IMG/VR virus record: IMGVR_UViG_3300005353_000006
Origin: a virus
Length of the DNA stretch: 21,368 nt
Direction: 5' to 3' (one strand)
Shown: piece after piece, positions 2,365 to 21,368 of the stretch
How the letters are laid out: every line of letters begins with the position of its first letter
Numbering within the stretch: position 1 is the first letter of the stretch
The notes under the pieces: model-generated
The model's input: only the letters and a program-made list of their open reading frames with translations
Told to the model about the DNA's origin: nothing
Databases searched by the model: none
Made by a program: the position numbers and the translations under genes

Positions 2365-3252
2365 CTAGCGCCCGGCCTCCTCGGCCAGCACCTTGGCGAC
2401 CGTCGGGTGGGTGCACCCGGCGAGCACCGCGATCGCGCGGTGCGACAGCCCGGCGGCGGCCGCGTCCACGATCGCCTGGCGCCAGGCGCGATCGGCCGTC
2501 ACCTTGGCGGCGGCGACCGCCACCAGCGTGGCGCCGATCGCGTCCTGCCGCTCGGCGCGGTCGGCGGCGGCGGCCTGGCCCGCGGTCTCGGCGACCTGCG
2601 CCAGCTCGGGCGCGGCGGCCGCGACCTCGGCCAGCGTGGCGGCCTCGTTGGCCTCCACCTGGGCGACCAGCTCAGGGTCGATCTCGCGCAGGTTCTCGCG
2701 GGTCGGGGCGGCCTGCAGCTTGCCCATGGTGACCTCCTCGGTGACGGGCTGGGCCTTGGCAAGGATCTTGCCGTAGCGGGTGCGGGCCTTGGCCAGCTTG
2801 GCCAGCGTCTCGGCGTGGCGCCGCTCGGCCCAGGCGATCGTCTCGGCGTAGTCCTCGGCGCGATCCGGGTACTGCTCGGTGTACGCGCCGTACACCTTGC
2901 GGGTGCTGGCCAGCTGCTCGTTGGCGGCCTGCACCCCGCGGCCGTCCTCGGCCACGTACGCCACCGCGATCTCGGCGGCCTCGGCCTCGGTCAGGATCAC
3001 AAAGCCACGCTTGAGCTGGCGGGTGGTGGTCGCGAAGGGCATGTGGGCGGCCGCGAACTTGGGCGGGTAGGCGACGCCGTAGCCGCTCATGCTGCCGTCG
3101 GTGCCGATGATCTCGCGGCCGACCCGGTAGGTGCCGGGCACGTCCTTGGCCTGGTGCAGGCCGCGCGCCTCGCGGGCGGCGGCGATCACGGCGGCGGCGG
3201 CGCCGCGGACGTGGGCCTTGCGGCCGGTGGTGGTGTTCGTGTCGGTGTTCAT
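2365..3252 (-). CDS. Orphan 295-aa protein with C-terminal HTH-like motif (cassette A); candidate DNA-binding regulator
   Basis: Minus-strand ORF with high GC3. ATG at 3252 lies 7 nt downstream of a -10 hexamer. C-terminus AIVDAAAAGLSHRAIAVLAGCTHPTVAKVL fits a resolvase/sigma-r4-style HTH pattern. The N-terminal domain is not recognised. Confidence 0.8.
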   Translation of the reverse strand: MNTDTNTTTGRKAHVRGAAAAVIAAAREARGLHQAKDVPGTYRVGREIIGTDGSMSGYGVAYPPKFAAAHMPFATTTRQLKRGFVILTEAEAAEIAVAYVAEDGRGVQAANEQLASTRKVYGAYTEQYPDRAEDYAETIAWAERRHAETLAKLAKARTRYGKILAKAQPVTEEVTMGKLQAAPTRENLREIDPELVAQVEANEAATLAEVAAAAPELAQVAETAGQAAAADRAERQDAIGATLVAVAAAKVTADRAWRQAIVDAAAAGLSHRAIAVLAGCTHPTVAKVLAEEAGR

Positions 3253-3259
3253 GGAAACA

Positions 3260-3288
3260 AGCTTACCATGGATCCTGGGGGATGGCAA
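3260..3288 (-). promoter_or_regulatory. Putative promoter P_A driving a leaderless transcript of cassette A
   Basis: Minus strand reads TTGCCA-17 nt-(TGG)TAAGCT-7 nt-ATG. -35 at 3283-3288, -10 at 3260-3265, with an extended -10 TGn. Confidence 0.6.
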
Positions 3289-3299
3289 GCGACTTTCCA
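3283..3299. promoter_or_regulatory. 17-bp imperfect palindrome O1, TGGCAAG-CGA-CTTTCCA, overlapping the -35 of P_A (putative operator)
   Basis: Half-sites TGGCAAG and TGGAAAG. An identical copy lies at 3658-3674 and a one-mismatch copy at 19405-19421. Confidence 0.6.
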
Positions 3300-3309
3300 C
3301 CCAGGACGA

Positions 3310-3360: not shown

Positions 3361-3627
3361 CTAGCGGCCGCCGCGCAGCTGGCGGGCGGTGACCTCCCCA
3401 GCGCGCTCCAGGGCGCACCGGAGATCGTCGCGGTCAGCGTTCCCGTTGGCGATGTCCTCCACCAGGCCGGTGAGGCCGACGCCGTTCAGCTGCTCGGAGT
3501 AGTGGCTGGCGAGCTGGTAGGCGTCGTCGCCCAGGTTGGCCACGATCCAGCCGGGGCGCTTGCCCGCGTCCAGCAGGTCGATCGCGGTGCGGAGGTGCAG
3601 GTTGGTGGCGCGCGTGTCGGTGTTCAT
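3361..3627 (-). CDS. Orphan 88-aa protein (cassette B) with N-terminal HTH-like pattern
   Basis: Minus-strand ORF. ATG at 3627 lies 7 nt downstream of a -10 hexamer. Shares its first five codons (MNTDT) with cassette A. AIDLLDAGKRPGWIVANLGDDAYQLASHY fits a helix-turn-helix pattern. Confidence 0.75.
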   Translation of the reverse strand: MNTDTRATNLHLRTAIDLLDAGKRPGWIVANLGDDAYQLASHYSEQLNGVGLTGLVEDIANGNADRDDLRCALERAGEVTARQLRGGR

Positions 3628-3634
3628 GGAAAGA

Positions 3635-3663
3635 ACCTTACCACAGGATCCGGGGGATGGCAA
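3635..3663 (-). promoter_or_regulatory. Putative promoter P_B driving a leaderless transcript of cassette B
   Basis: Minus strand reads TTGCCA-17 nt-(TGG)TAAGGT-7 nt-ATG. Confidence 0.6.
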
Positions 3664-3674
3664 GCGACTTTCCA
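3658..3674. promoter_or_regulatory. 17-bp palindrome O2 (identical to O1) overlapping the -35 of P_B
   Basis: TGGCAAGCGACTTTCCA read directly. Confidence 0.6.
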
Positions 3675-3683
3675 CGCCGGCCG

Positions 3684-3721: not shown

Positions 3722-4936
3722 GTGGGTCTGCTGGATCGGCTGCTGGGACGATCCGCACCGCCGCCGCCGTCGGTGCTCGGCCTGCCGTCCGGGTTCGATC
3801 CCGAGCTGGCCGGGCTGTTCGCCGGGTGGGCGTCGCCGCAGCTCGCCGAGCGCGTCGGCACCGCCGTGCGCTGCCTGCAGCTGGTCTGCCAGCAGGTGGC
3901 CGCCATGCCGATCCGGTTCCGCGGCGACTCGCCGGTGCCGCTGTGGGTGGCCAACCCTGACCCGGTGTGGTTCCCGAACGGCGCCGCTGATGCGACGTTC
4001 GCCACGATGGCGTCGATCTACGGCTGGGGCGACGCGTTCCTGCTGGTGACCGACCGCTACGTGACCGGCTTCCCGAGGGCCTACACCGTGCTGGATCCGC
4101 AGCAGGTGACCGTCGGCACCGACCCGGACGGCCGCGGCCGCACGTACCGGGTGAAGCAGTACGACCTGCGCAGCGAGGACGTGCTGCAGATCTCGCGCGA
4201 TCCGAACGGGCAGCTGCGCGGCACCTCGGCGCTGCAGGGCTACTCGGCCAACGTCCAGGGCGCCTACTTCGCCGAGAAGTTCGCGACCGACTTCTACCAG
4301 CAGGGCGGCGTGCCGTGGGCGGTGCTGCAGTCCAGCCGCCGCCTGGAGGCCGACCAGGCCGCCGCGCTGCAGGCGCAGTGGACAGCTCGGGTCGGCCTGC
4401 GCGGCGGCGCCCCGGCGGTGCTGCCGCCCGATGTCACGTTCCAGCAGTTCAGCTTCGCGCCGCGCGACCTGCTGCTGCTGGAGACCCGCGAGTGGGACGC
4501 CAAGCAGATCGCCGCCGCCTACGGCGTGCCCGCGTTCATGCTGAACATGGAGCAGGCGGGCGGCCTGAACTACTCCAACCCGGAGATGCTGTTCGACACC
4601 TGGTGGCGCACCGAGCTGTACCCGACCGCGCGCCGGGTGGAGGCCGCGCTGTCCACGTGGCTGCCGCGCGGCAGCTGGGTGGAGTTCGATCCGTCGATCC
4701 TGCTGCGGCCCGATCTGAAGACCGCCAGCGAGGTGTGGCTGGCGCTGCTCGCGGCCAACGTGGTGACGGTGGACGAGTGCCGCGCGGCGGTGCTGGATCT
4801 GCCGCCGCTGGCCGACGGCGAGGCGCTGGAGCTGATCGACGAGCCGCCCGGCGCGAACGCCAGCGGCCCGACCCCGCCCGACCTGCCCGCGCCGCCACCG
4901 GCGGCCGCACCCCTGGAGGTGGTGGCAAGTGCCTGA
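3722..4936 (+). CDS. Portal protein (HK97 family)
   Basis: 404 aa in the position after terL. Typical portal core QGGVPWAVLQS...FQQFSFAPRDLLLLETREWDAKQIAAAYGVPAFML...YSNPE. Confidence 0.9.
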   Translation: MGLLDRLLGRSAPPPPSVLGLPSGFDPELAGLFAGWASPQLAERVGTAVRCLQLVCQQVAAMPIRFRGDSPVPLWVANPDPVWFPNGAADATFATMASIYGWGDAFLLVTDRYVTGFPRAYTVLDPQQVTVGTDPDGRGRTYRVKQYDLRSEDVLQISRDPNGQLRGTSALQGYSANVQGAYFAEKFATDFYQQGGVPWAVLQSSRRLEADQAAALQAQWTARVGLRGGAPAVLPPDVTFQQFSFAPRDLLLLETREWDAKQIAAAYGVPAFMLNMEQAGGLNYSNPEMLFDTWWRTELYPTARRVEAALSTWLPRGSWVEFDPSILLRPDLKTASEVWLALLAANVVTVDECRAAVLDLPPLADGEALELIDEPPGANASGPTPPDLPAPPPAAAPLEVVASA

Positions 4937-10104: not shown

Positions 10105-11871
10105 GTGGCGGGTGGCGCCAGCGTCGTAGTCCGGTTCCTGGCCAACACCACCGACCTGGCCAAGGGCGCCAAGGACGTGGAGGCGCACGGCAGCCGCATG
10201 GGATCGGCCTTCAAGTCGATGGGCAAGGCCGCCGCGCTGGGCGCCGGAGCGGCCGGGATCGGCGCCGTCGTCGCCACCCTGAAGGTCGGCATTGACGAGT
10301 ACCAGGAAGCCTCCCAGGTGGCCGCGCAGACCAACGCCGTGATCAAGTCCACCGGCCAGGTGGCGGGCGTCTCGGCCGACCACGTGGGCGACCTCGCCGA
10401 GTCGCTGATGCGCAAGTCCGGGATCGACGACGAGGCGATCGCCTCGGGCGAGAACCTGCTGCTGCAGTTCACCAAGATCCGCAACGAGGCGGGCGCGGGC
10501 AACGACGTGTTCGATCGCACCACCAAGGCCATGACCGACATGGCCGCGCGCATGGGCACCGACCCGGCCGCCGCCGCCAAGGTGCTGGGCAAGGCCCTGA
10601 ACGATCCCGCCAAGGGCCTGACCAAGCTGGCCAAGCTGGGCGTGACGTTCACCGACGCCCAGCAGAAGCAGGTGAAGGCCATGACCGAGGCGGGCGACGT
10701 GGCGGGCGCGCAGAAGATCATCCTCGGCGAGGTGGAGAAGCGATACGGCGGCGCCGCCGAGGCCGCTGGTAAGACGCTTCCCGGGATGATCAACATTGCC
10801 AAGCAGTCGTTCAACAACCTGGCGGGCGAGCTGGTCGCCAAGATGATCCCGGCGCTGCTGGCGGTGGTCTCGTTCATCCGCGAACACTGGCCCGAGATCT
10901 CGCTGGTGATCGCCAAGGTGACCGCGACGGTCAAGCCGCTGCTGGTCGCGCTGGCGCAGCTGTTCCTGGAGATCGTGGACGTGATCGTCTCCGCCTGGCC
11001 GTCGATCCGGCCGGTGATCCTGGCGATCCTCCCGGCCCTGCAGGCCGCCGTCGCGGTGATCACCAACGTGGTGAAGCTGGTCACCGCGCTGCTGCGCGGC
11101 GACTGGAGCGCCGCCTGGACGGCGGCCAAGGCCATCGTGCTGAACATCGTCAAGCTGATCACCGCGCTGCTGCGGTTCGAAGTCACGATCTGGAAGACCG
11201 TCCTGAGCGCCGCCTGGACAGCGATCAAGGCCGCCACCAGCGCCGCCTGGAACGCGATCAAGGCGGCCGTCTCCAGCGCCGTCACCGCGATCGGCGGCGC
11301 GCTCGGTCAGATCCCCGCCAAGATCTCCAGCCTGGTGCACAGCGTCGCGACGCAGGCGGGCAAGCTGGGCAGCGCGATCAAGGACGGGATCGTGGACGGC
11401 GCCAAGGACGCGCTGCGCGCCGTCGGCGACGCGATCGGTGCGATCCCGGGCAAGATCTCCAGCCTGGTGCACGCCGTTGGCCGCGAGGCGGGCCGCGTCG
11501 CCAGCGCGATCAAGGATCCGATCAACGCGGTGATCCGGGCCTGGAACGGGATCGTCTTTCACGTGCCCAAGTTCACCGTCGGCGGCGGCTCGCACCTGGG
11601 CGTCGATATCCCCAAGTTCACGTTCGGCGGCCAGTCGATCGACTTCCCGAACCTGCCGACGCTGGCCCGCGGCGGGGTGCTGACCCGGCCCACGCTGTTC
11701 GTGGGCGGCGAGGCCGGGCGCGAGATCGTGGCGCCCGAGTCGCTGCTGCGGCAGCTGCTGCGCGAGGAGCACGGCGCCACCTACCAGCTGTTCCTGCAGC
11801 CGCGCACCGCCGACGCCCAGGACGTGGCGTACGCGTTCCGGCGGCTGGAGCTGCTGAGGACGGGCCGCTAG
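10105..11871 (+). CDS. Tape measure protein
   Basis: 588 aa, Ala/Gly/Lys-rich and helical with hydrophobic central segments. Lies directly before the Dit-like gene. Confidence 0.9.
   Translation: MAGGASVVVRFLANTTDLAKGAKDVEAHGSRMGSAFKSMGKAAALGAGAAGIGAVVATLKVGIDEYQEASQVAAQTNAVIKSTGQVAGVSADHVGDLAESLMRKSGIDDEAIASGENLLLQFTKIRNEAGAGNDVFDRTTKAMTDMAARMGTDPAAAAKVLGKALNDPAKGLTKLAKLGVTFTDAQQKQVKAMTEAGDVAGAQKIILGEVEKRYGGAAEAAGKTLPGMINIAKQSFNNLAGELVAKMIPALLAVVSFIREHWPEISLVIAKVTATVKPLLVALAQLFLEIVDVIVSAWPSIRPVILAILPALQAAVAVITNVVKLVTALLRGDWSAAWTAAKAIVLNIVKLITALLRFEVTIWKTVLSAAWTAIKAATSAAWNAIKAAVSSAVTAIGGALGQIPAKISSLVHSVATQAGKLGSAIKDGIVDGAKDALRAVGDAIGAIPGKISSLVHAVGREAGRVASAIKDPINAVIRAWNGIVFHVPKFTVGGGSHLGVDIPKFTFGGQSIDFPNLPTLARGGVLTRPTLFVGGEAGREIVAPESLLRQLLREEHGATYQLFLQPRTADAQDVAYAFRRLELLRTGR
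11320..11517 (+). repeat. In-frame 132-nt (44-aa) tandem duplication inside the tape measure gene
   Basis: Exact 21-mer aagatctccagcctggtgcac at 11320 and 11452. agcgcgatcaagga occurs at about 11371 and 11504. Confidence 0.85.
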
Positions 11872-15129: not shown

Positions 15130-15310
15130 GTCTACGGCGGTGGCCTGGTCGGCGGAGGACAGCAGCGGGCGAGCCGGGCGCGGCACCCCGCCGTCGGTCT
15201 GAACCGGGCCGTTCGGAGGGGACGACCCTGACCTGCTAGGGGGGCGTCCCATGCCACGCATTCGCCGCAAATTGCGACACTTACGTGAGATCCGCAGACC
15301 CGCGCCAACG

Positions 15311-15444: not shown

Positions 15445-15669
15445 ATGGCTGTGAGCGAGCACGAGCACCTGACCGAGACGGGCGACGAGCTGATCTCGTT
15501 CGCCGAGGCCGGGCGCCGGATCCCCAAGCGGAACGGCGCGCCGCGATCCGAGCGCACGATGCAGGACTGGGGCGCCCGCGGGCTGCTGCCCGTGGTCGCG
15601 GTCTCGGCCCACGTGCGGTGGGTGAACTGGTCGGAGTACCTGCGGCGTCTCCACCACAGCACCCGCTAG
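15445..15669 (+). CDS. xis: Excisionase-type (MerR-like) HTH DNA-binding protein
   Basis: 74 aa. LISFAEAGRRIP...TMQDWGARGLLPVV...VRWVNWSEYLRRL. Lies immediately upstream of the integrase. Confidence 0.7.
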   Translation: MAVSEHEHLTETGDELISFAEAGRRIPKRNGAPRSERTMQDWGARGLLPVVAVSAHVRWVNWSEYLRRLHHSTR

Positions 15670-15670
15670 G

Positions 15671-15687
15671 TGGAAACTGTGTTACCA
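15671..15687. promoter_or_regulatory. 17-bp palindrome TGGAAAC-TGT-GTTACCA at the xis/int junction (same TGGnAAn-N3-nTTnCCA skeleton as O1/O2)
   Basis: Read directly, with one mismatch between arms. AT-rich for this genome. Its last A is the A of the alternative int start, ATG 15687. Confidence 0.45.
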
Positions 15688-15734
15688 TGGGGCTGCTGGG
15701 CGATGATCGCCCGCACCGACACGAGGAGCCGACG

Positions 15735-16931
15735 GTGACCGACACCACCGCCACCCGCACGTTCGCCCAGCACGTTGACCAGCCCGGCGGCCCCGGCACG
15801 CAGTACCGGGTGCGCCTCCGGTTCCCGGGCATGGCCACGATCTACACCGAGTGGCACAGCGACCTGGACGTGGCCAACGCCCGCGCCTCGGAGCTGCGCG
15901 CGATCCGCAAGCGCGGCGAAGGCCCCAGCGACGGCGCCCGGTTCGTGACCCTCGGCGACATGGCCCGCGAGGTGCTGGCCGCCAAGGGTATCGCCGGGCT
16001 GACCGAGGGCGGCCTGGAGTGGTGGGCGCGGATCCTGCGGCCGCTGATCGACGGGCCGCACGCGGCCACGCCGGTGCACCTGCTGCCCGTCGCCAAGATC
16101 CGCACCGCCCACCTGGAGCGCGCCGCCAAGCATCCCAAGGCCGCCAACGACGAGCGGATCGGCCTGGAGGCCGTGCTGCGCGCCGCGCAGGCCGACGGCG
16201 CCAAGGTGCCGGGCGCGCTGCTGGAGCTGCCGACGCCGGTGTGGGAGACCCGCGAGCGCGTCACGATCCACCGCGACGGCGAGCTGGCCGCGTTCGCGCT
16301 CGGCGCGCCCGACCGCTACGCGCGGCTGGTGCTGCTCCAGGGCATGGTCGGCTGTCGCATCGGCGAGCTGCTGCAGCTGCGCCGCGACTGGATCGACCTG
16401 GCCGAGGGCACCATCACGATCCCGCCCGCCGCGCACAAGTCGGGCAAGCGGATCGGCGCCAAGATCATCCCGCTGCTGCCCGAGGAGATCGCGCTGCTGA
16501 CCGAGCAGCTGGCCACCCTGCGCGTGGCGGGCGCCACGCCCACCTCGCACCTGCCCGGCACCCCGGCCGAGTCGGAGCTGGTGTGGCCGATGCCGGACGG
16601 CTCGGCCTGGCCGATGATCCACGGCCGCGTGGCGCACAGCTACTTCAATCGCCACGTCTGGCAGCCGACGCTGGCCGCCGCCGGGCGCGACGATCTCACC
16701 TCGCACGATCTGCGCGCCACCGCCGTCACGATCATGCGCGACCGCGGGATCTCCGAGGAGACCTGCCAGCTGCGGGTCGGCCACGCCGACGCCAAGCTGA
16801 TCCGCTCGGTCTACGACAAGGGCAGCCGCCTGGCGCGGGCGCAGCGCGAGCTGGTGGCGATCGCGGCGGCAGAGGTGGCGACCGTCACCGACACGATTCC
16901 GGCCGCCACCGCCGAGGAGGCTACCCGATGA
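15735..16931 (+). CDS. int: Tyrosine integrase
   Basis: Catalytic pattern: R in CRIGELLQLR, HDLRATAV (H-x-x-R), VGHAD, and Y in IRSVYDKG. GTG 15735 lies 6 nt after GAGGAG. Alternative start is ATG 15687. Confidence 0.9.
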   Translation: MTDTTATRTFAQHVDQPGGPGTQYRVRLRFPGMATIYTEWHSDLDVANARASELRAIRKRGEGPSDGARFVTLGDMAREVLAAKGIAGLTEGGLEWWARILRPLIDGPHAATPVHLLPVAKIRTAHLERAAKHPKAANDERIGLEAVLRAAQADGAKVPGALLELPTPVWETRERVTIHRDGELAAFALGAPDRYARLVLLQGMVGCRIGELLQLRRDWIDLAEGTITIPPAAHKSGKRIGAKIIPLLPEEIALLTEQLATLRVAGATPTSHLPGTPAESELVWPMPDGSAWPMIHGRVAHSYFNRHVWQPTLAAAGRDDLTSHDLRATAVTIMRDRGISEETCQLRVGHADAKLIRSVYDKGSRLARAQRELVAIAAAEVATVTDTIPAATAEEATR

Positions 16932-17128
16932 CGCGCTCGGCCCTGAGCACCGTCCTGCTCGCCGCCGCCGCCCACGCGGCGGCGGTGGAGCAGCTGGCCG
17001 ACCAGCCGTTCCAGCTGCTGTCCGAACGGGAGGCGCCGGATCGGGTCGCCGCCTGGGTGGCGCGGCAGCGCGAGCTGGCCGCCGAGATCCGGGCCGCGAT
17101 CGCCGAGCTGGCGGAGCACCCGCTGTGA
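16928..17128 (+). CDS. Hypothetical 66-aa protein
   Basis: ATGA overlap with the int stop. High GC3. Confidence 0.7.
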   Translation: MTRSALSTVLLAAAAHAAAVEQLADQPFQLLSEREAPDRVAAWVARQRELAAEIRAAIAELAEHPL

Positions 17129-17137
17129 GCGCGCCCG

Positions 17138-17156
17138 GTGTCAATTCTGTGTCAAC
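17138..17156 (+). repeat. 19-bp direct repeat, copy 1: GTGTCAATTCTGTGTCAAC (two GTGTCA boxes 11 bp apart)
   Basis: 18 of 19 nt match 17345-17363. Confidence 0.9.
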
Positions 17157-17170
17157 CCTGACCGCGGCCA

Positions 17171-17207
17171 ACGGCCCGATCCCTGCAGCCATGCGGGATC
17201 GGGCCGT
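17171..17207. repeat. Perfect 13-bp inverted repeat with an 11-nt loop
   Basis: ACGGCCCGATCCC-tgcagccatgc-GGGATCGGGCCGT. Confidence 0.9.
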
Positions 17208-17209
17208 TC

Positions 17210-17236
17210 CCGTTCCGGTGTCTGACACCGAAACGG
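17210..17236. repeat. 13-1-13 palindrome with one mismatch, centred on GGTGTC-T-GACACC
   Basis: CCGTTCCGGTGTC-t-GACACCGAAACGG. Confidence 0.85.
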
Positions 17237-17315
17237 CCCCGCGCGTGTCTGCGGCCGTCGGCGGGATTCCGCGTAACCATGCGGGTTCGCGTGGTCTAGG
17301 CCGCGTGACCCTGCG

Positions 17316-17654
17316 GTGCCCTGCGGGTGTCTGCGCGGGCCTGCGTGTCAGTTCTGTGTCAACGCGGCGGCCCTGGTGACCCGCGCCGACCGCACCCCGC
17401 CCGCGCCCGCCGGGCGGCTCAGCACCGCCCAGGTCGGCGCCGTGCTGACCGCCCTGGCCCGCGCCGCCAGCACCGCCGACGACCGCGCCGCGGTGGTCGC
17501 GCTGCGTGACTGCCAGCTGTGGCTGAACACCACCACCGCCCTGGCCCGCGCCGCCGAGCGCCGCCAGCTGGTGCGCTGCCCGAGCTGCCGCGAACCGCTG
17601 CCCGAGCTGGGCGAGCTTCACGACCTGCTGCACCGGCTGGCGGTGGAGCTGTGA
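17316..17654 (+). CDS. Hypothetical early protein with possible split zinc-ribbon cysteines
   Basis: Good GC3 from about 17376 onward. CQFC near the N-terminus and CPSC near the C-terminus. Start uncertain (GTG 17316 or GTG 17376). The 5' end overlaps the second 19-bp repeat. Confidence 0.6.
   Translation: MPCGCLRGPACQFCVNAAALVTRADRTPPAPAGRLSTAQVGAVLTALARAASTADDRAAVVALRDCQLWLNTTTALARAAERRQLVRCPSCREPLPELGELHDLLHRLAVEL
17345..17363 (+). repeat. 19-bp direct repeat, copy 2: GTGTCAGTTCTGTGTCAAC
   Basis: See copy 1. The two copies are 207 bp apart. Confidence 0.9.
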
Positions 17655-17809
17655 CCCGAGGCGCTGTCGGCTGGGCGCTGTTCGTGCTGCTCGCGCAGCT
17701 CGCGCGGGCGTCGCGGTGGATCGCCGGGCCGGGCGAGATCGAACGGCGGCTAGCAGACCGGGCGTGGCTGGAGCACCGCCCGGCCGATCACGAGAGGAGG
17801 CCCTGGTGA
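17651..17809 (+). CDS. Small 52-aa protein with one hydrophobic segment
   Basis: GTGA overlap with the previous stop. GAVGWALFVLLAQLA. Confidence 0.55.
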   Translation: MTRGAVGWALFVLLAQLARASRWIAGPGEIERRLADRAWLEHRPADHERRPW

Positions 17810-17922
17810 ACTATCCGAGGAGCTACCGCTGGTGGCAGGACGGCCTGGTCTGGAGCTGCCTGGGCCTGGTCGCGTTCGGCATCCTGATCGGCGTGGCCGT
17901 GACCACGGTGGTGGCCTGGTGA
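17806..17922 (+). CDS. 38-aa single-pass membrane peptide
   Basis: GTGA overlap. GAGAGGAGG lies 5 nt upstream. TM segment LVWSCLGLVAFGILIGVAVTTVVAW. Confidence 0.6.
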   Translation: MNYPRSYRWWQDGLVWSCLGLVAFGILIGVAVTTVVAW

Positions 17923-18128
17923 CCGCGCCACAGCTGACGCTGGAGGAGCAGATCGCCACCGAGGTGGCGCTGCGCGACTACCTGGCCAGCGAGGCCGCCT
18001 ACTACCGGCGCCGCGCCGAGACCGGGCACGACCGCCAGCACGCGATCCAGCTGGAGGACTGGGTGACCCAGCTGGACGCCGTGATCTCCAACCGTCGGAT
18101 GGCGCGGCGTGCCGACGCTGTGCCGTGA
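17919..18128 (+). CDS. Hypothetical 69-aa protein
   Basis: GTGA overlap. High GC3. Confidence 0.65.
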   Translation: MTAPQLTLEEQIATEVALRDYLASEAAYYRRRAETGHDRQHAIQLEDWVTQLDAVISNRRMARRADAVP

Positions 18129-19050
18129 GTGCGGCCGGGTGGTGGCGGCGCAGCTGGTGCCCGGCGCGTGGCTGTGCGAGACCTGCAACCGAGGAGGACG
18201 ACCCGTGAGCACTCCCGCTGAGCACGGCGGCGCCGCCCCGCCGCCCGAGAAGCCCCCTGAAACGCCCGCTGAGGCGATCCCGCCGTCCGAGGCCGAGGGT
18301 ACGGCCGAGGTGCTGGACGCGCCGGAGACGCCCGCTACGACGCCCGCACGTGGAAGCGGGCCTTCCACGCGGACGATCGATCCGCCCCGTGCCCTGCCTG
18401 CTCGCCGCGGGGTTCAGCTGGTCACCCGGCCGGAGCCGTCCTGGCGCGAGCTGGGCTGGTGGCTGTCGCTGGCCGAGTCGGGCCAGGAGACCGCCCAGGC
18501 CCGCGGCGGCCGCGCCGCGCTGCGCCTCTACTACGTGACCCAGCTGGGCCTGCCGCTGTGGGCGGCCAGCCACCTGTCGGTGATCAACGGCCGCCTGGTG
18601 GTGTCCTCGGAGCTGCTGCGCGCGATCGCGGCCCGCGCCGGGTACGACGTGGCGCCCGAGGACTGGACAGACGACAGCTGCACCGCCTACGTGGTGCGCC
18701 GCGCCGACGGCGAGGTGATCGGCCGGTACACGTTCACGATCGCCGACGCCCAGCGGGCCGAGCTGATCCGGCCCCGGTCGGCCTGGGTGACGCACCCGCG
18801 CCGGATGCTGTGGGCGCGAGCGGCCGCGTTCGCGCTGCGCGACGCGATCCCGGAGGTGGTGCTGGGCTTCCAGACCACCGACGAGCAGGCCGAGATCTAC
18901 GGCCGCGAGGCGGAGCCGATCGGCGTGGACGCGCCGTACGAGTACGGCCCCGCCGAGCGAGACGAGGACATCCCGTTCCGGTGGCGCGACCCGTGGCTGA
19001 CCGGGGAGGTGAACGTCGATGGCGCGGCCGACCACCTGCGACTGCGGTAG
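18109..19050 (+). CDS. RecT-family single-strand annealing protein with N-terminal CxxC-x14-CxxC zinc ribbon and Pro-rich linker
   Basis: The C-terminal part aligns by eye with RecT (YVTQLGLPL...; AWVTHPRRMLWARAAAFALRDAIP versus E. coli RecT PWVTHWEEMAKKTAIRRLFKYLP). Alternative start is GTG 18205, after GAGGAGGAC. Confidence 0.8.
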   Translation: MPTLCRECGRVVAAQLVPGAWLCETCNRGGRPVSTPAEHGGAAPPPEKPPETPAEAIPPSEAEGTAEVLDAPETPATTPARGSGPSTRTIDPPRALPARRGVQLVTRPEPSWRELGWWLSLAESGQETAQARGGRAALRLYYVTQLGLPLWAASHLSVINGRLVVSSELLRAIAARAGYDVAPEDWTDDSCTAYVVRRADGEVIGRYTFTIADAQRAELIRPRSAWVTHPRRMLWARAAAFALRDAIPEVVLGFQTTDEQAEIYGREAEPIGVDAPYEYGPAERDEDIPFRWRDPWLTGEVNVDGAADHLRLR

Positions 19051-19399
19051 CTGTGCGACCTGCCGCCATCGGGTCTACATGCGCCGATGGCAGGCCGCGC
19101 ACCCCGGCTACGCGGCAGCCGCGGTGCGGCGCCGCAGGGCCGAGCATCCCGAGGAGCTGCGCGAGTACGACCGCGACCGCTGGCACCATGACCGTGAGTT
19201 TCGGCGGCGCAAGCGGGCGCGGAATCGGGTCTCCACGGCCTTGGCCCGAGGCGAGCTGGTGCGGGCTGATGCCTGCGAGTCCTGCGGGGCCGAGCGGTTC
19301 TGCGAGGCGCACCACGCCGACTACAGCCGCCCGCTGGACGTGACGTGGCTGTGCAGGGACTGCCATCACGCCGTGCACGTGCCGGAGGCGCTGATCTAG
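19019..19399 (+). CDS. Second HNH-type endonuclease
   Basis: CESCG...CEAHHADYSRPLDVTWLCRDCHHAVH. N-terminal Cys cluster CDCGSCATC. More T-ending codons than neighbouring genes. Confidence 0.8.
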   Translation: MARPTTCDCGSCATCRHRVYMRRWQAAHPGYAAAAVRRRRAEHPEELREYDRDRWHHDREFRRRKRARNRVSTALARGELVRADACESCGAERFCEAHHADYSRPLDVTWLCRDCHHAVHVPEALI

Positions 19400-19403
19400 G
19401 GCC

Positions 19404-19931
19404 GTGGCAAGCGACCTTCCACCGAGGCCCGCCTGGCGGCGCCGCTGTGCCCTGGCCGCCGTCTCGCCCGGCGCCAAGGCCGTCGTGCTGGCGCTGGACA
19501 CCTACATGGACGCGGCCTGCCGCGCGCAGGTCTCGCGCGGCAGGCTGGCGGCCGATCTCGGCGTGACGGCGCGCACCGCGCTGCGGTGGATTCACGAGCT
19601 GGAGGCGGCCGAGCTGCTGGGCGTCGATCGCACGATCGGGCACCACGTGAACCGCTACCAGGGCCGTCCCTACGGTGACACCCGCGACACCGTGACGGTG
19701 ACACGGGCGTCACGGTCTACGGTGACAGCTGAGACCGCCGACGGTGACAGCTCACGACCACTGACGGTGACACGGGTGTCACCCGAACTAGAAGGTCAGA
19801 AGGACAACGGCGCGGGCGCGCGCGGCGACGGTCAAGCCCGCGGCGAGGGCTACGGCAGCGCCTCGGGCGCGCAGCTCGCGCGGGAGGCGGCGGCGGCAGC
19901 CCGGCGGAGGATCCTGGAGGGCGGCGCGTGA
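19404..19931 (+). CDS. Winged-helix DNA-binding protein, candidate replication initiator (lambda O-like arrangement)
   Basis: KAVVLALDTYMDAACRAQVSRGRLAADLGVTARTALRWIHELEAAELLGV is a typical wHTH pattern. The iteron array lies inside its own coding sequence. Confidence 0.75.
   Translation: MASDLPPRPAWRRRCALAAVSPGAKAVVLALDTYMDAACRAQVSRGRLAADLGVTARTALRWIHELEAAELLGVDRTIGHHVNRYQGRPYGDTRDTVTVTRASRSTVTAETADGDSSRPLTVTRVSPELEGQKDNGAGARGDGQARGEGYGSASGAQLAREAAAAARRRILEGGA
19405..19421. promoter_or_regulatory. 17-bp palindrome O3, TGGCAAG-CGA-CCTTCCA, over the start codon of the initiator-like gene
   Basis: 16 of 17 nt identical to O1/O2. No -10 lies at the position used in P_A/P_B. Confidence 0.55.
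19672..19772 (+). repeat. Five direct iterons ACGGTGACA at spacings of 23, 24, 22 and 23 bp (candidate origin iterons)
   Basis: Copies at 19672, 19695, 19719, 19741 and 19764. Copies 2 and 5 extend to GGTGACACGGGYGTCAC. Confidence 0.85.
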
Positions 19932-20038
19932 TCGCGGTGGACGCCAGCCTGGGCCTGACGGGCGGCGAGCTGCGGCTGCTCGGCGTGCTGGTGCTCGTGA
20001 TCGCGCTGGTGGCGCTGTTCGCGTCGCCACCACGGTGA
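19928..20038 (+). CDS. 36-aa single-pass membrane peptide upstream of the lysin
   Basis: GTGA overlaps at both ends. LRLLGVLVLVIALVALFA. Confidence 0.55.
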   Translation: MIAVDASLGLTGGELRLLGVLVLVIALVALFASPPR

Positions 20039-21243
20039 ACGGGCTGGAGGCGCTGGGCGTGATGGCGCTGATCCTGGTGGCGATCGGGCTGGCGGGCCGG
20101 GTAGTTCGGCTGCCGAACGATCGCGCTAGGATCGACGGCATGGCCGACGCGTACAGCTACCTGACCGACTCGGAGCGGGTGACCTTCAACGAGACCTCGC
20201 GCCTCATGCAGCTGACCGACTGGGCGGGCTGGGACGCCACCCTGCAAGCCCAGTTCGACACCACCCAGCAGTGGATCCGCGATCGGCGCGCCTATATCAG
20301 CGACCTGGCCACCGGCGAGGTGGAGTCAAGCAACGGGCCGGGCTGGGACGTGGCGCACCGCCGCGAGCGGTACGACTACCTGCACAAGGCGAACCACAGC
20401 GACGCGGCGCCGCGGGTGCTGTGCCAGCTGCCGACCGAGGGCGGCACCGACGCCGAGAAGGTCTACACGTCACAGCGCGAGCTGTGGTGGCGCGAACCGA
20501 AGGGCGCCTACTCCGAGCAGTCGGCGCGGCGCCAGGCGATCACCGATTGGCTGGTGGAGCGCCGCCAGTACGTGTGGCGCCTCGCCGAGGGCCAGGTGCC
20601 CGGCGAGACGCCCGGCTGGGATCACGCCAACCGTCGCCAGCGGTACTCCAACCTGCAGGTCGCGACCAAGCACGGCAGCGCCTACGACAGCTGGTGCAAG
20701 TCCCACAACACCACCACCGGCGAGCCGAAGGGCGACGGCAGCAGCTCCTCGGGTGGAAGCGGATCTACCAGCGCTCGAGATCGCGCGCTCAGCTGGATGG
20801 CGCAGCATCGCGGCCTGAACGAGCAGCCGGGCGGATCCAACTGCGACAGCCGCTCGGACGGGATCCGCACCGCGCAGGATCGCTGCGTGGCCATGGGCAG
20901 CTCGGGCACGTGGCTGCGCTACCAGCCGTGGTGCGGGGTCTGGTGCGCGAACGCCATGCAAGCCGCGGGCGTGAAGGGCCTGACCTACGACCTGGCCAGC
21001 GTGGAGTGGATCGAGGCCCGCGCGAAGGCGGGCAAGGCGCCCTTCACCGGCTGGACGACCGACCCGAGCAGGGTACGGCCCGGCGACCTGGTGACGCTGT
21101 TCTCACCCGGCCAGCACGTGGCCATGGTGCGCACGCCCGGCACCAACCCGGTGACCGAGGAGGGCAACACGTCCGACACCTCGGCGCAGCGCACGCGATC
21201 CAAGGGCGACGTGGTGGGCTACGCGCTGGTGGCGTACCCGTGA
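20035..21243 (+). CDS. Cell-wall hydrolase/endolysin with N-terminal TM anchor, two ~39-aa internal repeats and a C-terminal CHAP/NlpC-P60-type domain
   Basis: TM LEALGVMALILVAIGLAG. Catalytic-type motifs PWCGVWCANAM, GDLVTLFSPGQHVAMV and EEGNTS. Confidence 0.85.
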   Translation: MNGLEALGVMALILVAIGLAGRVVRLPNDRARIDGMADAYSYLTDSERVTFNETSRLMQLTDWAGWDATLQAQFDTTQQWIRDRRAYISDLATGEVESSNGPGWDVAHRRERYDYLHKANHSDAAPRVLCQLPTEGGTDAEKVYTSQRELWWREPKGAYSEQSARRQAITDWLVERRQYVWRLAEGQVPGETPGWDHANRRQRYSNLQVATKHGSAYDSWCKSHNTTTGEPKGDGSSSSGGSGSTSARDRALSWMAQHRGLNEQPGGSNCDSRSDGIRTAQDRCVAMGSSGTWLRYQPWCGVWCANAMQAAGVKGLTYDLASVEWIEARAKAGKAPFTGWTTDPSRVRPGDLVTLFSPGQHVAMVRTPGTNPVTEEGNTSDTSAQRTRSKGDVVGYALVAYP

Positions 21244-21260
21244 CCAACGAGGAGGAGCAC

Positions 21261-21368
21261 GTGACCGACCAGGCCGAGGCGCCGGACACCGAGCGCACCG
21301 ATGACGCTGCCTTCAGCGACGACGCCACCGAGAAGCTGGGCGACGCCACCGAGCGCGAGACCAACGAG
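21261..21368 (+). CDS. Hyper-acidic small protein, 5' part (continues at nt 1 across the circular junction)
   Basis: GTG 21261 lies 3 nt after GGAGGAG (21251-21257). In frame with nt 1-177 through the terminal repeat. Confidence 0.7.
   Translation, partial: MTDQAEAPDTERTDDAAFSDDATEKLGDATERETNE
21309..21368. repeat. Terminal direct repeat, copy 2
   Basis: Identical to nt 1-60. Confidence 0.97.

Follow-up and report, generated by a model that had tools for sequence, protein, structure and literature searches.

A putative lambda-like replication origin within the gene of a small winged helix-turn-helix protein in a high-GC phage genome

The replication origin of phage lambda is located in the middle of gene O (PMC7466680). 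As annotated, ori-lambda comprises four 18-bp iterons, with spacings of 20, 24, and 23, which begin at codon 117 of O and are followed by a purine-rich adenine-thymine (AT) tract. A further group of O-like proteins, which carry the HTH_36 domain, is treated as putative initiators (PMC8951638). The lytic origins of actinobacterial phages are almost unmapped, and one study could only guess that the origin lies within or next to repA (PMC7157519). Here, a viral DNA of 21,368 nt with a guanine-cytosine (GC) content of 73.2% (IMG/VR record IMGVR_UViG_3300005353_000006; the whole analyzed stretch is referred to as the window) was investigated, in which an initiator-like gene on the + strand (19404..19931) contains an array of direct repeats and a low-GC patch. 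The sequence features of this locus suggest that it is probably the replication origin of the phage, similar in layout to ori-lambda and contained within the initiator gene of the phage itself. The 175-amino acid (aa) product of this gene is the only candidate replication initiator of the phage.

The array consisted of five exact copies of the 9-mer ACGGTGACA, which were found at 19672, 19695, 19719, 19741, and 19764, all on the + strand (array, 19672-19772), with spacings of 23, 24, 22, and 23 nt. A preliminary description of this DNA, in which five copies in the same orientation at 22-24 bp spacing had been reported, was exact in this respect. No further exact copy was present in the window, and the six GGTGACA heptamers of the window were all inside the array. 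ACGGTGACA was the sole 9-mer with at least four non-overlapping copies within 120 nt, and four copies were reached in none of 300 dinucleotide-preserving shuffles. Each unit of the array can best be described as a 22-bp site divided 9-4-9, with a constant left half. As the right half, site 5 has a good inverted copy, sites 1 and 2 have an imperfect one, and sites 3 and 4 a degenerate one. Iteron 1 (19672..19693, + strand; ACGGTGACA-cccg-CGACACCGT) is an imperfect 9-4-9 palindrome and forms an inverted pair with iteron 5. Iteron 2 (19695..19716, + strand; ACGGTGACA-cggg-CGTCACGGT) is likewise an imperfect palindrome and extends into the inverted repeat GGTGACACGGGCGTCAC (19697-19713), iterons 3 (19719..19740, + strand) and 4 (19741..19762, + strand) retain ACGGTGACA with a degenerate right half, and iteron 5 (19764..19783, + strand; ACGGTGACA-cggg-TGTCACC) is the best palindrome and contains the inverted repeat GGTGACACGGGTGTCAC (19766-19782). 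The extension of two copies into inverted repeats, as described previously, was confirmed by the latter two coordinates.

Both the array and the patch are contained in the open reading frame (ORF) 19404-19931, and all of the sites are 268-380 nt inside the coding region of the protein itself. The ORF encodes ...YGDTRDTVTVTRASRSTVTAETADGDSSRPLTVTRVSPELEG..., which includes the odd TVT peptide that had been attributed to the iterons; the five copies of ACGGTGACA fall in two reading frames (YGDT/DGDS and TVT). The GC content of third codon positions in the frame of the ORF decreased from 0.91 in the part encoding the winged helix-turn-helix (wHTH) domain to 0.66 over 19671-19811, and then returned to 0.92. 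The use of two reading frames and the decrease at third positions over the array therefore indicate that the repeat exists at the DNA level and was selected as DNA, not as peptide.

The encoded protein is composed of a wHTH domain, a disordered linker, and a C-terminal helix. In an AlphaFold2 model built from 72 sequences, the mean predicted local distance difference test score (pLDDT) was 78.5. The wHTH domain (residues 1-89; 19404..19670, + strand), with the recognition helix RTALRWIHELE, showed pLDDT values above 90 over residues 11-89, with helices at 7-17, 22-32, 45-52, and 56-68 and wing strands at 72-75 and 84-87. The array begins at codon 90, right after this domain. The linker (residues 90-152; 19671..19859, + strand) houses the proposed origin elements, and residues 90-150, which are encoded by the iterons and the patch, had pLDDT values of about 46-54, indicating predicted disorder; this agrees with the earlier statement that the elements are located in the low-complexity linker of a wHTH protein. 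The C-terminal helix (residues 153-171; 19860..19916, + strand; GAQLAREAAAAARRRILEG) had pLDDT values of 84-95 and is a candidate oligomerisation or host-recruitment module. The C-terminus was conserved across lineages as GEGYG...AQLAREAAAAARR.ILEGG, and the motif G[YFW][GSA][DSN][PASE] was found in 14 of 163 family members. A single winged-helix domain was present in the model, with no O-like or RepA-like second domain. The public gene calls for the initiator (P0001 and P0002; 148-149 aa) start 27 codons late and miss 19404-19484. These calls are considered truncated because all lineages share the PAWR N-terminus, which the model folds with confidence.

In profile searches, the N-terminal 100 residues matched PHROG 270/6643, annotated as 'replication initiation protein' (E-value of 8e-7), over profile positions 41-128 of 383 only. 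The window protein scored 21.6 bits against Pfam HTH_36 (PF13730), for which the cut-off is 25, and 66 of 72 sampled aligned relatives matched this family. Neither an NCBIfam match nor a Rep_3-type Pfam match was obtained. A sequence search of solved structures and structure searches of PDB and BFVD mainly yielded generic wHTH regulators and ranked lambda gpO-like proteins far lower; these results neither support nor exclude an initiator.

Close relatives of the protein were few, and their DNA was compared. In eight related metagenomic lineages, the array was located just after the wHTH domain (the array begins at codons 85-97) and the patch about 20 nt past the last repeat. The spacings in these arrays were helically phased at about 22, 33, or 44 nt, and being multiples of about 11 nt, they put the sites on one face of the helix. 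L001/L010 carried five copies of ACGGTGACA with spacings of 23, 24, 22, and 23, and L008/L037 carried four forward copies (23, 46, 23) and one inverted copy of ACGGTGAC, which belongs to the ACGGTGACA class. GGGGGCT was found in five copies in L049 (23, 24, 22, and 23, equal to the window spacing) and in four copies in L007/L040 (33, 34, 22). Four copies of ACGGGGGCT with spacings of 33, 34, and 22 were present in L004, three exact copies of the 10-mer CAACGGGGGC (58, 22) in L046, and three forward copies of GGGGGTCT (34, 22) with an inverted copy upstream in L009/L039. The iteron class of L004, L007, and L046 can be written as (A)CGGGGGCT. Within the ACGGTGACA lineages, the half-sites were fixed and the central 4 nt drifted (cggg, cccg, ccag).

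Each iteron class was accompanied by its own recognition helix (RTALRWIHELE, STVKRAVHRLE, TAVKRAVRRLE, or RxVDRAxDQLE). The helices RTALRWIHELE and RTVVRWIQELE went with ACGGTGACA iterons, S(T/S)(V/I)KRAVHRLE with GGGGGCT iterons, and TAVKRAVRRLE with GGGGGTCT iterons. A protein and its own binding sites would be expected to show such a pattern. The comparison between L049 (9497-9620) and the window (19672-19797) revealed identical spacing and the same TAGAAGGTC patch, whereas the iteron cores and the recognition helices were completely different; from the sequences, specificity appears to have been swapped naturally in this pair while the scaffold stayed fixed. A further conserved segment, PEGW(V/I)PEDD...IA......RE, was observed between the patch and the C-terminal GYGDP helix in P0007, P0008, and P0136 (loci L008 1300-1480 and L049 9660-9800), and it could be a second protein-interaction motif.

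The low-GC, purine-rich patch (19785..19808, + strand; gaactagaaggtcagaaggacaac) contains the core TAGAAGGTC at 19789-19797 and is a candidate unwinding or loading element. Its GC content was 11/24 (45.8%) in a window whose overall value had been correctly estimated as above 70%, and 75% of its top strand was purine. Only 69 of 21,345 24-nt windows (0.3%), in about 5-6 places, were as low as the patch. The lowest-GC 30-nt window of the initiator gene starts at 19777, and in lambda as well as in 10 of 11 HTH_36 loci, the corresponding window was located no more than 15 nt from the final iteron. The patch peptide ELEG is encoded by GAA CTA GAA GGT, codons with usages of 6%, 1.1%, 6%, and 4.8%, respectively, in 17 window genes (joint probability of about 2e-6). 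TAGAAGGTC was found in seven of the eight loci, once per locus except for L009, where it occurs twice in tandem. In L049, it was kept although the peptide is KVEG instead of ELEG. In L046, where the peptide is ERKG, the variant GTAAAGGTC replaces TAGAAGGTC; rare codons are still used, as AAA never encodes lysine in the window genes. These sequence data suggest that the TAGAAGGTC patch is held in place through rare codons. Accordingly, the 24-nt AT-rich patch of the preliminary description stands with respect to its GC content and its two AGAAGG copies, but it is better described as a conserved motif of 9-13 nt (TAGAAGGTC) than as a broad AT-rich tract.

Other elements were also considered in and around the patch. 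By eye, only a partial match to a DnaA box was seen (TTGTCC on the reverse strand; the actinobacterial consensus was taken by us to be TTGTCCACA), which was not shared by the relatives and was dropped. TAGAAG was considered as a -10 promoter element, but its final T is missing and no matching -35 element was detected. A GC-rich palindrome (19810-19823), a minus-strand terminator-like match, was left out of the element because it is missing in three lineages.

In summary, the locus combines five direct repeats about two turns apart, with internal dyad symmetry in sites 1, 2, and 5, an adjacent low-GC region, and an intragenic location in a flexible linker, which together correspond to a lambda-type origin architecture. 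We infer protein binding, unwinding of the patch, recruitment of the host helicase, and replication itself, as follows. The 175-aa protein would bind the five phased 22-bp iterons through its N-terminal wHTH domain, probably as dimers, recognizing the constant left half-site ACGGTGACA and, in three iterons, a recognisable inverted right half. Binding at five sites two helical turns apart could produce a wrapped nucleoprotein complex like the lambda O-some. The complex would strain the adjacent purine-rich patch (19785-19808, core TAGAAGGTC), and the duplex would open there. The host replicative helicase and replisome would then be recruited, either directly or through the conserved C-terminal helix. 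Among the ORFs scanned across the window (Pfam, PHROG, and the domains of homologues), no recognisable gene for a helicase, loader, primase, or polymerase was found, and the replication machinery would therefore have to be supplied by the host.

The same layout was sought in the wider HTH_36 family. A profile search yielded 1,673 representative clusters at E-values up to 1e-3, mostly of 150-200 aa. Repeated tetrapeptides just after the wHTH domain were detected in 93 of 163 homologues, compared with 22 +/- 4 in shuffled tails, and their spacings peaked at 7-8, 11, 15, 18-19, 22, and 26 aa, which correspond to multiples of about 11 nt. Two distant family members, L043 and L044, were examined as DNA. 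Both contained AACCGCGCA iterons (spacings of 34, 22, and 22 in L043) with a lower-GC stretch behind them, and the first iteron was palindromic in each. The surroundings of the L043 gene (4700-8060 in a Gaiella sp. metagenome-assembled genome, GCA_046160185.1) comprise a small-terminase gene, HTH_17, the HTH_36 gene with its internal iterons, a further HTH_17, and an integrase gene, and adjoin BREX genes (PglZ, BrxL). This island looks like a phage satellite or an element resembling phage-inducible chromosomal islands with the same replicon type. A large family of small HTH_36 proteins appears to share the layout with an origin in the linker.

Family members also led to annotated initiators. 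The member P0014 matched the 'DNA replication protein O' of the lambdoid E. coli phages mEp013, mEp044, and mEp010, and the alignment of the family profile with mEp013 O by hhalign gave a probability of 97.6% (E-value of 4.6e-12). The mEp013 O gene (gene 15) is at the lambdoid O position, after cI and two small ORFs. It contains four GGTAGTGTCAC-N4-GTCACC iterons about 22-23 nt apart right after the wHTH domain, followed by a tract of 20-30% GC. The closest isolated actinophage relative found for the family, which was located with the member P0015, is gp40 of Arthrobacter phage KellEzio, annotated as 'replication initiation O-like'. More tentatively, there may exist a large family of very small, loader-less lambda-type initiators, each made of a wHTH domain, an origin-housing disordered linker, and one helix, in phages and small integrative islands of high-GC Actinomycetota. 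Their origins would consist of two modules, with iteron and recognition-helix specificity being swapped on a frozen geometry (as between the window and L049) and the conserved TAGAAGGTC recruiting the host helicase or replisome directly in bacteria without DnaC-type loaders. We regard this broader proposal as possible but doubtful.

Several observations weigh against an origin at this locus. The protein did not match PF04492 (Phage_rep_O), and the family profile gave a probability of only 1.9% against lambda O by hhalign; lambda O itself matched PF04492 at 5.7e-36. Transcription regulators, too, often contain HTH_36 or the wHTH fold, and the structure searches mainly gave repressors. The protein ends at residue 175 with a single helix; it has no C-terminal domain of about 200 aa after the linker such as is found in mEp013 O, KellEzio gp40, and the PHROG 270 profile, nor the large C-terminal domain of lambda O, and no loader is encoded that would account for helicase recruitment. 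The patch is short (about 24 nt, 46% GC), only relatively AT-rich, and much weaker than the tract of about 40 bp in lambda; its strict TAGAAGGTC conservation could reflect a protein-binding or host-factor site rather than an unwinding element. The GC skew showed no switch at the site and was uninformative. Finally, the RecT-like gene of the phage could support recombination-dependent replication, for which no such origin is needed.

If the wHTH protein were instead a transcription regulator, the array would be an intragenic operator for autoregulation or for a roadblock on the downstream lysis genes. The fold resembles that of MarR-, GntR-, ArsR-, and CodY-type repressors, palindromic sites suit dimeric regulators, and with a membrane ORF and a lysin gene downstream, occupancy of the array could gate late expression. 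However, the sites are all intragenic (six of six heptamers in the array), with none being intergenic or at a promoter, and no promoter-like site was found in 17000-21368. Furthermore, proteins encoded at the lambdoid O position and annotated O-like initiators share this layout, and a conserved low-GC element beside the array is not expected of an operator. On these grounds, we consider an operator unlikely. It is even less probable that the array is a site for packaging (pac/cos) or partition to which the wHTH protein or a small terminase binds. Co-variation links the repeats to the recognition helix encoded by the surrounding gene and not to the terminase, and the pair of HNH and terminase genes is at the other end of the window, about 2 kb away, although phased direct repeats are typical of terminase-binding as well as centromere-like sites and the distant relatives L043 and L044 are near a small-terminase gene. 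The pNOB8 centromere-binding protein was among the weak structural matches, but an integrase is encoded and a ParA-type ATPase was not found in the scanned ORFs, which would leave a partition site without its partner.

The notion that the repeats are a by-product of the low-complexity peptide linker, or chance in GC-rich DNA, has hardly any probability left. A linker predicted to be disordered would tolerate sequence change, and GC-rich genomes hold many short repeats. Nevertheless, the copies lie in two reading frames, their number was not reached in any shuffle, and their spacing is set in nucleotides (multiples of about 11) and not in codons; conservation is seen in the half-sites but not in the 4-nt centres or the flanks, and the patch has a strongly atypical, conserved choice of codons. 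The data on frame, shuffles, spacing, and co-variation effectively refute this explanation. A replication origin inside the initiator gene is the interpretation that we retain as probable.

With respect to the genome, the window is essentially the whole, near-complete genome of a small temperate siphovirus-like phage. It encodes a terminase (643-2178), a portal protein (3722-4936), capsid proteins, a tape measure protein (10105-11871), Dit, with a region from 12729 onwards that includes a Gp37-like tail protein, an integrase (15618-16931), and a RecT-like protein (18109-19050). The ORF of an HNH-like endonuclease (19019-19399; 126 aa, PHROG 2340) is located between the RecT-like gene and the initiator-like gene. 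It is missing from relatives such as L001, L004, and L049, in which the RecT-like gene adjoins the initiator gene, and a mobile nuclease gene seems to have been inserted in this lineage specifically. A lysis cassette was observed directly behind the replication gene. A small single-pass membrane ORF (19928-20038; 36 aa), which overlaps the initiator stop (GTGA) and is kept in all lineages, is followed by a 402-aa ORF (20035-21243). Since the homologues of the latter bear CHAP and PG_binding_1 domains, it is predicted to be a CHAP-type lysin, and the possibility that it is a hidden replication protein was ruled out. Its true start is probably the ATG near 20140, because the homologues span just 91% of the ORF.

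The contigs of the relatives were all about 21 kb in size and originated from soil and rhizosphere metagenomes. The portal protein was at most 32% identical to those of Mycobacterium and Microbacterium phages, and the host is probably a member of Actinomycetota. A host search in genome contigs yielded no relatives in a protein-pattern scan and only chance matches in low-GC organisms in a DNA-motif scan, and the search of a phage collection with the window locus (DNA and protein; tblastn with the window protein) gave no match. Nothing was obtained from viral contigs with the single distant proteins P0015 and P0098 or with the 72-sequence alignment as queries. Neither tRNA genes nor Rfam families were detected in the window. 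A minus-strand gene pair (2365-3300 and 3361-3675), one member of which has a C-terminal HTH_23 motif, is located between the terminase and portal genes, and its position is kept in L001 and L049. The lowest-GC spots of the genome (3234-3251 and 3617-3626) are inside this pair, which may be an immunity cassette or a lysogen-expressed cassette. A further low-GC spot (15268-15292) immediately precedes the integrase gene and could be attP or a promoter region, and a 24-nt sequence is tandemly repeated three times in the early region at 17420-17491.

The locus provides a precise, testable candidate origin of about 140 bp together with its initiator, and natural specificity-swap variants of identical geometry are available. 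If functional, it could serve as a basis for minimal replicons for high-GC bacteria, and as a system for asking how a loader-less initiator engages the host helicase. It would also supply a rule by which the origins of metagenomic phages could be located: phased repeats directly behind an HTH_36 domain, and then the gene's lowest-GC spot.

Compared with lambda, the window locus shows similarly phased, dyad-symmetric repeats (20, 24, and 23 in lambda; 23, 24, 22, and 23 in the window), followed by a purine-rich, least-stable stretch, all inside the initiator gene and behind the region for the N-terminal DNA-binding domain (from codon 117 of lambda O and codon 90 of the window gene). On the other hand, O has 299 aa and the window protein 175 aa, without an O-type C-terminal domain. 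No P-like loader gene follows the window initiator, the next genes being the 36-aa membrane ORF and the CHAP lysin, and the low-GC element is about 24 nt at 46% GC, as opposed to about 40 nt of AT in lambda. The claim of a lambda O/ori-like origin inside an initiator gene therefore holds for the layout, which is shared with the relatives, mEp013, KellEzio, and ori-lambda, whereas lambda O is an analogue and not a detectable homologue, and both a P-like loader and an O-like C-terminal domain are lacking. The likeness to lambda thus appears to be one of architecture, and the homology, as judged from sequence comparison, is with the putative initiators of the HTH_36 O-like group.

Within that group (mEp013; Eru-type Shiga toxin phages), the wHTH domain is homologous to that of the window protein, and the mEp013 half-site (GTGACA/TGTCAC) and its TVT peptide are similar. 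The mEp013 protein differs in its 329 aa with a large C-terminal part and in its low-GC proteobacterial host, and its function is itself only annotated. KellEzio gp40 carries four GAC(A/C)CCCCGTCA repeats right after the wHTH domain, followed by a lower-GC stretch; unlike in the window, the protein has 323 aa and the genome 58.9 kb, and its annotation contains no origin. Iteron plasmids (RepA, pi, and TrfA) resemble the locus in their phased iterons beside an unwinding element and their winged-helix initiator, but their Rep proteins possess two tandem winged-helix domains, the iterons are outside the gene, and DnaA boxes are usual, in contrast to the single wHTH domain and intragenic iterons found here. 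Among Gram-positive phages, in SPP1 oriL within gene 38 and in TP901-1 rep, initiator-bound direct repeats are inside the initiator's own gene, as here. Unlike here, a helicase and a loader (G39P and G40P in SPP1) or larger Rep proteins are also encoded by these phages. An origin embedded in an initiator gene is textbook knowledge, and the locus mostly extends a known principle. What is new is a minimal initiator without a loader, a short conserved motif instead of a long AT tract in a 73% GC genome, and evidence that this arrangement is widespread in a large, uncharacterised family, the small HTH_36 proteins of high-GC mobile elements.

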